Below, piece by piece: positions 2,053 through 3,737 of a stretch of 41,061 nucleotides of DNA (position 1 is its first letter; each line of letters opens with the position of its first letter). The notes under the pieces were generated by a model. That model saw only the letters and a list, made by a program, of their open reading frames with translations, did no database searches and was not told where the DNA came from. The stretch covers positions 1,098,613-1,139,673 of the forward strand of contig BCKZ01000001.1 of the NCBI GenBank assembly GCA_001600815.1. Reading direction: 5' to 3'. Origin of the DNA: Alloascoidea hylecoeti. Its lineage: Eukaryota. The position numbers and the translations under genes were made by a program.

Positions 2053-2467
2053 TGTCATATGTGAAAATTGCCAAAACTAATGGGGCTGTTTCTGTTAATC
2101 CTCCTCGGATCCTTAGACTCACGGTATATGTACTTGGGTACTAATTGTTTAACTAAAAAAACCTTAATAACTAGGGAACCGTATTGCGAGCTTTTGCGAG
2201 CTTTTGCGAGCTTTTGCGAGCCTTTTTTTTTTTTTTTTTTCTCCAAGTGGCCATTAAGGCTCTATATTAAACTGCTTTACTATATTCATAACAACCAAAA
2301 ATTTGTGAAAATAAAAAGACCTATTACTAGGCAAAAATACCTCTTACTAATGTTAGAGGTTCACTCTTTTTTGAGTAATGTTGTTACTTTTTTAATATTA
2401 TTTATTATTGTCACCATTTCCAACTTCTTACTCAATTAATACGAGTAAAGGATGTCAATTGTATACA
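2053..2467. mobile_element. Putative LTR, family A copy 1 (415 bp, TG...CA)
   Basis: Starts TGTCATATGTGAAA and ends TCAATTGTATACA; both termini recur at 37275..37702. Internal blocks AGACTCAC, GCTTTTGYGAGCT and AACTGCTT are shared in the same order. A purine-rich tract (GAAAAAGAAAACAAGCAGG, PPT-like) precedes it. No matching TSD. Confidence 0.5.
2184..2240. repeat. 10-bp tandem repeat (CTTTTGCGAG), about 3.7 copies, followed by T18
   Basis: Read directly: ttgcgag cttttgcgag cttttgcgag cttttgcgag cc + poly-T. Confidence 0.9.
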
Positions 2468-2476
2468 TCTTTNNTA

Positions 2477-3077
2477 TTTTTTTTTTTTTTTTTTTTGTCC
2501 ATAGCACCTAAATGATTCAGAACAAAGCTTTGTGGAGTCCCTTTCAATCATTTTACTTCATTGAGATACTGATAAACTATTCTCCTGTTGATAGTATCTT
2601 CTGTGATATTTTCTAATCAAAAAAAACGGTTACTGCTCTTAATATTAATTCTTTTCTTTCCTTATGATTAAAGTCAAAGAAAGATTTGACTTCAATTTCT
2701 TTTTCATTTAATTCTATCACTTTTTGGTTATAGGACCATATTTTCTTTGTAATTTCACATGTAGAGAATACATGCTCAAAGGATAATTCAAATTTATCAC
2801 AGCAAGGACACCTTTTGTCTTTGAGGTTGTTGTAAAAATGTAAAAATGAACCACTGCAGAATATTTGATAATCATTTATAACGTTTGATAGATAAAGGTT
2901 GTTTTTATGGATTATTTTCCATAGCAAACCCCATTTATTGACACCAATTTTGTAGGTTTTTTTCAATTCATATGGTACTGATACTTTTTGATTATTTGCT
3001 TTGAAGAAACTTTTACAAATGCTCCTCCAACTGAATTTGTCGGGCCTTTCAGGTTTTACGTTCAAAATGTAACAAAA
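2477..3077 (-). mobile_element. 5'-truncated non-LTR retrotransposon (L1 clade, Zorro/Ylli-like): ORF2 C-terminal zinc knuckle plus poly(A) tail
   Basis: ORF 2613..3065 contains CPCC-x6-EHVFSTC-x5-IW, the CCHC zf-RVT motif of L1/Tx1 ORF2 C-termini, preceded by LLWKIIHKNNLY. There is no ATG, RT or endonuclease domain. A20 tail at 2477-2496 on the minus strand. Removing one T from the T8 run at 2619-2626 continues the frame (LIRKYHRRYYQQ...). Confidence 0.8.
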
Positions 3078-3084
3078 TTATGCC

Positions 3085-3089
3085 AAAAA
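3085..3089 (-). terminator. Pol III terminator (T5) of tRNA-iMet
   Basis: AAAAA on the + strand, 2 nt past the tRNA 3' end. Confidence 0.75.
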
Positions 3090-3091
3090 GT

Positions 3092-3163
3092 TAGCGGCGC
3101 TCGGTTTCGATCCGAGGACATCAGGGTTATGAGCCCTGCGCGCTTCCGCTGCGCCACGCCGCT
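3092..3163 (-). tRNA. IMT: Initiator tRNA-Met (CAT), intronless, 72 nt
   Basis: Reverse complement AGCGGCGTGGCGCAGCGGAAGCGCGCAGGGCTCATAACCCTGATGTCCTCGGATCGAAACCGAGCGCCGCTA. Shows the A1-U72 pair, GGG/CCC anticodon stem and GATCGAAAC T-loop that mark eukaryotic initiator tRNAs. Confidence 0.98.
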
Positions 3164-3176
3164 GTTCTATTGATGG

Positions 3177-3558
3177 TGTAAAGTAAGCTACTAATCCCTT
3201 AATAGCTTACAATAGATGTAACTGGCGGAATCAGATACAGACGACGATCAAGATCTAACCAGGAAAATTTTATTAAAGCTAACCTCCTCCCCTTTAAAGT
3301 GGGATTTATCTTACGTTTATATAGATAAATCCAAAAGCTATTAATAGGAAAAATCCTAGAAGTAATAAACATAATAAGATATTAAATGTTGCGGTAAGAA
3401 TGAAATACAATTGTATATATCCACGAACTGGCTAGTTCAAGAACTGTGGAATGTTTTTCAGGAACCAATATAAAATGCATCCAAGAAATGTTAAATGTAC
3501 TAGCGAAATGATAACCAAAGGAACAAAATAATGACGATGTCATGATTGTTCCTTTACA
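3177..3558. mobile_element. Putative solo LTR, family B (382 bp), upstream of tRNA-iMet
   Basis: Termini TGTAAAGTAA ... TTCCTTTACA form a 9/10 inverted repeat with TG...CA ends. Flanks GATGG and GACAG could be a decayed 5-bp TSD. It starts 13 bp from the tRNA mature 5' end. Confidence 0.45.
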
Positions 3559-3737
3559 GACAGTTGGAAGGTTATATTTATGATATTACTACCCTTAATT
3601 CTGTGTCAAGAATACACAAAAATAAGAAGAATAGAAAGAGGAGTTTTTATTTCACTATATATAGTAGAGATTTCCTCAGAAGTTACATAGTTTCTAGTTA
3701 TATGAAAAGTTAAAAAAAAAAAACTCTTAATTAAGCT

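Follow-up and report, generated by a model that had tools for sequence, protein, structure and literature searches.

A 5'-truncated L1-type LINE behind an initiator tRNA gene of Alloascoidea hylecoeti and the placement of its family downstream of tRNA genes

Introduction

In the stretch of 41,061 bp analysed here (C1:1098613-1139673, referred to as the window), a tRNA gene of the budding yeast Alloascoidea hylecoeti is followed on the same strand by the 3' end of a LINE and a poly(A) tract. The order of tRNA, LINE tail, and poly(A) is superficially that of tRNA-headed SINEs and of tRNA/LINE-1 or U6/L1 chimeras, and the locus thus raises the question of whether both parts moved as one unit or whether a LINE was inserted behind a resident gene. 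A sequence-only reading of the window had offered a LINE family targeting the 3' side of tRNA genes like TRE3 of Dictyostelium, a template-switch chimera, or a SINE or proto-SINE. We compared the locus with the whole assembly (24.8 Mb, 136 contigs) and with public sequencing runs.

Results

The tRNA gene and the LINE copy of the window

The locus sits in a stretch of about 5 kb without long ORFs; elsewhere in the window, ORFs are long and poor in introns and resemble budding yeast genes. Annotation revealed the following features, among them a LINE of a family designated A and the tail of another designated B:

1472–1516, minus: older, diverged A-like 3' tail, 71% identical to 2228–2272 (sequence comparison)
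1521–2114, no strand: MITE-like repeat, dispersed, with terminal inverted repeats of 30 nt, used as control, not tRNA-linked
2184–2222, minus: 3' flank with GG (candidate right copy of a target-site duplication), then a 10-mer repeat (sequence)
2223–2240, minus: true poly(A) tail, A18 (paralog alignment)
2223–3044, minus: 5'-truncated family A L1-type LINE, 822 bp (paralog alignment)
2473–2496, minus: internal A-tract at the end of ORF2, A20 (2496–2477) and NN (2473–2474) (paralog alignment)
2616–3044, minus: C-terminal ORF2 section still in open frame, with CCHC zinc knuckle (translation, Pfam)
3045–3091, minus: unique genomic spacer of about 47 nt between tRNA and LINE (alignment, single-copy junction)
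3049–3045, minus: AAAGG at the spacer end, candidate left copy of a short target-site duplication (sequence)
3085–3089, minus: T5 Pol III terminator (sequence)
3092–3163, minus: tRNA-iMet(CAT) gene, the target (ARAGORN and Rfam, 61.9 bits)
3177–3558, plus: solo LTR (TG..CA) of 382 bp, upstream of the tRNA gene at a distance of 13 bp (sequence comparison)
3603–3723, plus: family B LINE 3' tail with poly(A), head-to-head with the tRNA gene (sequence comparison)

The intact tRNA-iMet and its T5 stop were thus confirmed as read before. We take the A1:U72 pair, the three G-C pairs of the anticodon stem, and the T-loop sequence AUCG of this tRNA-Met(CAT) to be the marks of an initiator. All three iMet genes found in the genome are identical over the 72 nt of the tRNA and differ in their flanks. 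Behind the one on contig C32, at a distance of 48 nt, lies a separate and shorter insertion of family A, and the flank of the third revealed a weak match to the tail of another family. The junction of tRNA, spacer, and LINE is present as a single copy in the genome.

The L1-type ORF2 C-terminus noticed downstream was also verified, based on its CxxC..HxxxxC motif and a zf-RVT match (E 0.0035) under the Pfam cut-off. Its frame shifts at T8 (2626–2619), where paralog contigs have one letter fewer at position 2619, and then runs into a stop, so that the window copy is dead. The nearest paralog of the 822-bp copy showed 92.7% identity. Both ends of the LINE had to be redrawn. The proposed distance of about 15 bp from the tRNA gene reflects the opening of the frame only; homology begins 31 nt after the gene according to BLAST and about 47 nt after it in the best alignment. 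Likewise, the A20 tract, regarded before as the 3' end, is internal. Paralogs carry A7-8GA5 at this site within the final ORF2 codons, the tract codes for the ORF2-terminal lysines in paralog L031 (…CYGQKKKNRKDVYV), and the element continues for about 250 nt to a conserved end and A18. The two N, which were thought to blur the 3' junction, correspond to GG in 6/6 aligned paralogs, lie within the element, and do not touch the junction. Directly after the poly(A) tail, a 10-mer is repeated about 3.7 times (2184–2220), which could be the result of priming slippage or an older microsatellite.

Altogether, an ordinary tRNA gene is followed, at a distance of about 47 nt and in the same direction, by the remnant of a dead LINE. 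On its upstream side, a solo LTR and a second LINE family had been overlooked. All three insertion types (solo LTR, family B tail, family A downstream) occur at this one gene. Beyond the MITE-like repeat, the A-like tail at 1472–1516 on the same strand suggests an earlier hit at the same tRNA gene.

Family A is an L1-type LINE

Longer, broken copies of family A were found with 4.5 kb on C5 and 4.8 kb on C7. The endonuclease of the C5 copy best matched that of human L1 (E 7e-8), and all nine PDB matches were L1-derived. The reverse transcriptase, which gave an RVT_1 match above cut-off, matched L1 ORF2p with an E-value of 2e-10 and R2 with 0.1, a coarse ranking of clades since the PDB holds few LINE clades. 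Analysis by tblastn revealed the domain order endonuclease, reverse transcriptase, zinc knuckle, with the endonuclease N-terminal to the reverse transcriptase in ORF2, and the C-terminal CCHC, the poly(A) end, and variable 5' truncation are further L1-type traits. About 1.4 kb of broken frames without a Pfam match precede the endonuclease in the C5 and C7 copies. The endonuclease has STH, as compared to SDH in L1 (L034 2525-3268 minus; P0005, P0006, P0008); distant database relatives are alike in this, so that a trait of the lineage is more probable than decay.

All long copies are broken, and no intact family A ORF2 was present among 59 RVT_1 or 5 endonuclease matches. Full-length database relatives are about 30% identical, and among 20 that were checked an organism name was given for two, both fungal; no named TRE, Zorro, or Ylli protein was returned among these relatives. 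A protein search for longer relatives gave 0 matches among 3279 candidates, a profile search gave 12 matches, none named as a known element, and scans of metagenomes for relatives with flanks confirmed none.

Placement of family A in the genome

Starting from the elements, 45 of 56 loci begin at most 150 bp downstream of a tRNA gene on the same strand, compared to a chance expectation of 0.05–0.17 for such placement, assuming 300–1000 tRNA genes. The arrangement is thus far beyond chance, and the tabulation of copies against tRNA genes that the sequence-only reading had named as its check showed non-random placement with gaps of 10–97 bp. To obtain the 56 loci, we searched with the element body, its 3' end, a pattern of that end, and the endonuclease, and merged tandems at the same site by hand; as only top candidates were scored, locus counts of family A are lower bounds. 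Six of the remaining 11 loci start 184–2554 bp downstream of a tRNA gene, and five have none in the fetched flank. The clearest exception is a copy of 2.3 kb with a large internal deletion at C3:490750-493017 (L113), which lacks a tRNA gene in the 2 kb upstream.

The gaps (median 47 bp) were determined for 47 loci of a BLAST-clustered set, which comprises 56 clusters, two of them found from the tRNA side. These loci involve 27 anticodon calls, a few of which were misread by ARAGORN owing to introns, and 8/47 targets are intron-bearing or long tRNA genes. A terminator run of T5 or longer lies within 45 nt in 47/47 spacers, and 18/47 gaps are shorter than 40 bp. The 5' edge is approximate for the four long copies that were used as references; judging from homology to other copies, they too stay at 150 bp or less. 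Gap and copy length (51–4767 bp) are independent (rho 0.13, p 0.38). It is therefore the copied 5' end that meets the tRNA flank, as expected with a fixed site and varying truncation.

Starting from the tRNA genes, 23 of 63 have family A downstream on the same strand; one upstream and one opposite case each trace to a copy that belongs with a neighboring tRNA gene. The 63 genes are the top of about 1957 rough Rfam candidates, picked regardless of LINEs, two of them at contig ends. These tallies use Rfam coordinates, and gap tallies use default ARAGORN. Calls of tRNA-SeC inside family B, obtained with relaxed ARAGORN (-ps95), were rejected as false.

The MITE-like repeat of the window (42 matches among 88 candidates, 68–91% identity) served as control. 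Within 500 bp of the 63 tRNA genes we found 19/55 family A loci and 0/39 MITE loci (Fisher p 1e-5), and at 1500 bp 20/55 and 1/39, respectively; copies in the window itself and two weak MITE rows that were duplicates are excluded from these tallies.

Further families at tRNA genes

Four more LINE families were detected downstream of tRNA genes on the same strand. One of these, tallied from the element side, has 21 of 23 rows (30 before seven redundant ones were dropped) downstream on the same strand within 3 kb, with one opposite and one without a tRNA gene. Family F gave 49 matches in the genome. At stacked loci, family A is nearest to the tRNA gene in 20/22 cases, which fits repeated insertion shoving older copies outward.

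Family B is organized the other way around, upstream and head-to-head, and was found at 37 of the 63 tRNA genes within 1.3 kb. Without an intervening LTR, its distance is at most 110 bp in 49 of 63 loci (median 64), a set that mixes element-first and tRNA-first loci. The tail in the window now lies 439 bp from the tRNA gene, or about 55 bp if the LTR is left out of the count. Reverse transcriptases of families A and B are 23–26% identical, and a tree of 50 rows, with long branches and two rows less than half filled, did not group A, B, and D in any of 200 bootstrap trees (0/200). Altogether, LINEs lie within 600 bp of 46 of the 63 tRNA genes, 30 having one downstream, 33 upstream, and 17 on both sides.

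Sibling solo LTRs of the one in the window have 5-bp target-site duplications and are found in both orientations, 11–17 bp upstream of tRNA genes. Ty3/gypsy gag-pol regions were seen at L038 3022-4839 and C20:146000-150000, one of them between two divergent tRNA genes, and several long open gypsy-type reverse transcriptase frames are present in the genome. A separate LINE lineage (C38:101150, L114; C11:134990, L122), whose reverse transcriptase is 15–20% identical to those of families A, B, and D, had no tRNA called in the fetched flanks. We also observed closely spaced tRNA gene pairs of the same isotype, most of them in inverted arrangement and separated by LINE pieces (C6:998733/999451, C11:529455/531132, C23:322219/324177, and C2:731659/734979); at such pairs, the elements may favor local duplication of tRNA genes.

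Target-site duplications

A blind test for target-site duplications was negative, with a mean longest shared word of 4.9 compared to 5.0 in shuffled sequences (n=35), so that the evidence comes from nested insertions, for which other copies of the older host LINE supply the empty site. Ten nested clusters were found, and four were dropped due to low-complexity or unrelated matches or extra junction bases. Four of the remaining six (C12, C40, C2:597792, and C13) revealed duplications of 3–4 bp around the LINE alone, and the other two a small deletion or an ambiguous result. The duplicated words share no common motif.

The window copy had been described as lacking a visible duplication. A short candidate does exist, as the 5' junction is preceded by AAAGG and the poly(A) tail is followed by (A)AAGG; with 2–3 informative letters and microhomology to the LINE also at this junction, it is suggestive only. 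No direct repeat of at least 12 nt brackets tRNA and LINE together in the window.

Comparison of spacers revealed one identical pair among 1081. It belongs to an identical unit of tRNA-Thr, spacer, and family A tail at C8:616158 and C16:186493 (L076, L008) with different 3' flanks. As the C16 unit starts 18 bp after a 100-N gap, it is possibly a scaffolding artefact; the unit at C8 and C16 is either such an artefact or a real mobilized tRNA-LINE unit.

Junctions in public sequencing runs

The spacer and 5' junction are bridged by a contig of 108–109 nt (3013–3121) with 0 differences in 4/4 public runs, which represent three samples from three studies, one possibly being the source of the assembly itself. 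The 3' junction is bridged by a contig (1600–2273) in two of the four (X1 and X2), and no single contig in the four runs holds the whole element. All four carry the window copy, and neither an empty allele nor a new insertion was seen among them. A joint of 3091 to 2319, found in X3 only, was considered as a strain-specific insertion or empty allele and rejected, as it matches the paralogous C32 iMet gene with its short insertion.

Discussion

Origin of the arrangement

We consider it very probable that the window copy was placed by target-primed reverse transcription directed to the 3' side of tRNA genes. The genome displays a consistent geometry and polarity, an L1-type endonuclease and reverse transcriptase, variable truncation at a fixed distance, poly(A) ends, and 3–4-bp duplications. 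The DNA would be cut or nicked 10–100 bp behind the terminator with fixed polarity, reverse transcription would be primed from this nick, and repeated hits at one tRNA gene would push older copies outward.

As to the guide, pairing of poly(A) with the T-run of the terminator does not explain the pattern, since according to the model of target-primed reverse transcription it would yield antisense copies at the T-run. Such copies were not seen, and the duplicated words share no motif, so that a tether to a Pol III complex is the most likely guide. With TRE5-A as the analogy, we lean towards a protein contact, with TFIIIC or Pol III as candidate partner, rather than a sequence motif. Nucleosome-free access may contribute, though alone it does not explain the polarity.

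A different history would be random insertion of LINEs followed by selection that spared copies near tRNA genes as safe harbors. Every copy seen is old and broken, so that the pattern has passed through selection, and 5/56 loci do lie away from tRNA genes. Selection, however, yields neither a window of 10–97 bp nor a single strand nor sides specific to a family, with family A and four others downstream on the same strand and family B upstream and opposite, and the MITE of the same genome persists away from tRNA genes. We therefore regard this history as highly improbable. Slightly less probable still is a template-switch or ligation chimera, in which the reverse transcriptase jumped to a pre-tRNA and tRNA and LINE were inserted jointly as a retrogene. 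The shared orientation would fit, a pre-tRNA could have a short trailer, and human tRNA/LINE-1 chimeras are known (PMC13174262); as described in the available part of that report, however, these are mostly antisense tRNA halves with duplications of 9–19 bp around the whole unit. In the window, the spacer extends about 40 nt beyond the terminator and thus past any Pol III transcript, and this terminator and unique spacer are kept. Terminators are likewise retained at all 47 loci, intron-bearing or long tRNAs are among the targets, and duplications flank the LINE and not the tRNA-LINE unit. Moreover, a Pol III-targeted LTR and a LINE lie upstream of the tRNA, as for a resident transcribed gene.

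The proposal of a SINE or proto-SINE, in which the tRNA head and LINE tail would be transcribed by Pol III and copied, could draw on the identical tRNA-Thr unit at two places. In contrast, the window junction is single copy, the other two iMet genes match in the tRNA only, and the one identical spacer pair has a member close to a 100-N gap. In addition, seven runs of T5 or longer separate the tRNA from the poly(A) tail, and we give this proposal very little credence, less than the chimera. Least probable of all is an assembly artefact fusing a tRNA contig to a repeat. Two N beside an expanded A-tract and the missing contig across the whole element could be taken as signs of it, but the two N are internal to the element, both junctions were recovered in contigs of public runs (the 5' one in every run, the 3' one in half of them), and dozens of loci share the layout. 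Targeted insertion behind a resident tRNA gene thus remains our preferred reading, and the idea of a TRE3-like family is strongly supported by the genome-wide tally.

Comparison with known elements

In Dictyostelium discoideum and other dictyostelids, TRE3 (TRE3-A to D) inserts 40–150 bp downstream from tRNA genes and in the same orientation, TRE5 44–54 bp upstream in the opposite orientation, NLTR-B at 39–64 bp, and DGLT-A 13–33 bp upstream in either orientation (PMC5911963). This layout of TRE3, TRE5, and DGLT-A is found here in a yeast. Family A likewise lies within 150 bp downstream in the same orientation, though closer (10–97 bp) and in a budding yeast instead of a dictyostelid; the likeness is one of insertion geometry, and family A is known from broken copies. 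It works, by analogy, like TRE3 and is not classed as TRE3, the host being another. Family B resembles TRE5 and NLTR-B in its upstream, head-to-head placement and narrow window, with a median of 64 bp compared to their 44–54 and 39–64 bp (PMC5911963).

Zorro1-3 of Candida albicans and Ylli of Yarrowia lipolytica are L1-type elements of budding yeasts as well, with poly(A) and many copies truncated at the 5' side. Ylli lacks recognizable target-site duplications, as did family A in the blind test, and, unlike for family A, the available text on Ylli gives no tRNA preference (PMC5014426). Zorro3 differs in its target, poly(A) tracts, and Zorro1/2 in their subtelomeric location (PMC7175516). The solo LTR of the window lies near the tRNA start similarly to Ty3, Tyl3, and DGLT-A, which is ordinary for yeasts, and is termed putatively Ty3-like. 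Compared to tRNA-headed SINEs and tRNA/LINE-1 or U6/L1 chimeras, the window has a terminator and a unique spacer between the two parts, a single-copy junction, and no duplication around the whole unit. In genome scans, tRNA plus LINE tail plus poly(A) in Alloascoidea hylecoeti should therefore not be called a SINE.

Significance

According to the accessible part of a 2018 review, insertion downstream of tRNA genes occurs only in dictyostelid genomes (PMC5911963), and a 2016 study, in its available text, calls TRE targeting unique to dictyostelids (PMC5006619). Outside Repbase and most subscription journals, our literature search found no fungal LINE that targets tRNA genes. We think it likely that a budding yeast independently evolved the whole Dictyostelium set, with at least five downstream LINE families, a deeply diverged LINE family placed head-to-head at about 60 bp upstream, and a Ty3-like element at the start site, which jointly occupy about three quarters of its tRNA genes. 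If true, family A and its companions would be the first fungal LINEs to target tRNA genes and, beyond the dictyostelids, the first retrotransposons to target their downstream side.

For TRE5-A, ORF1 binds TFIIIB and targeting requires the B box (PMC5911963). It is the only TRE studied mechanistically according to the same 2016 text (PMC5006619). A LINE that spares genes and inserts in a specific orientation is a lead for safe-harbor insertion, and a fungal LINE with the geometry of TRE3 would add a case of independent convergence in hosts with genetically tractable TFIIIC, TFIIIB, and Pol III.
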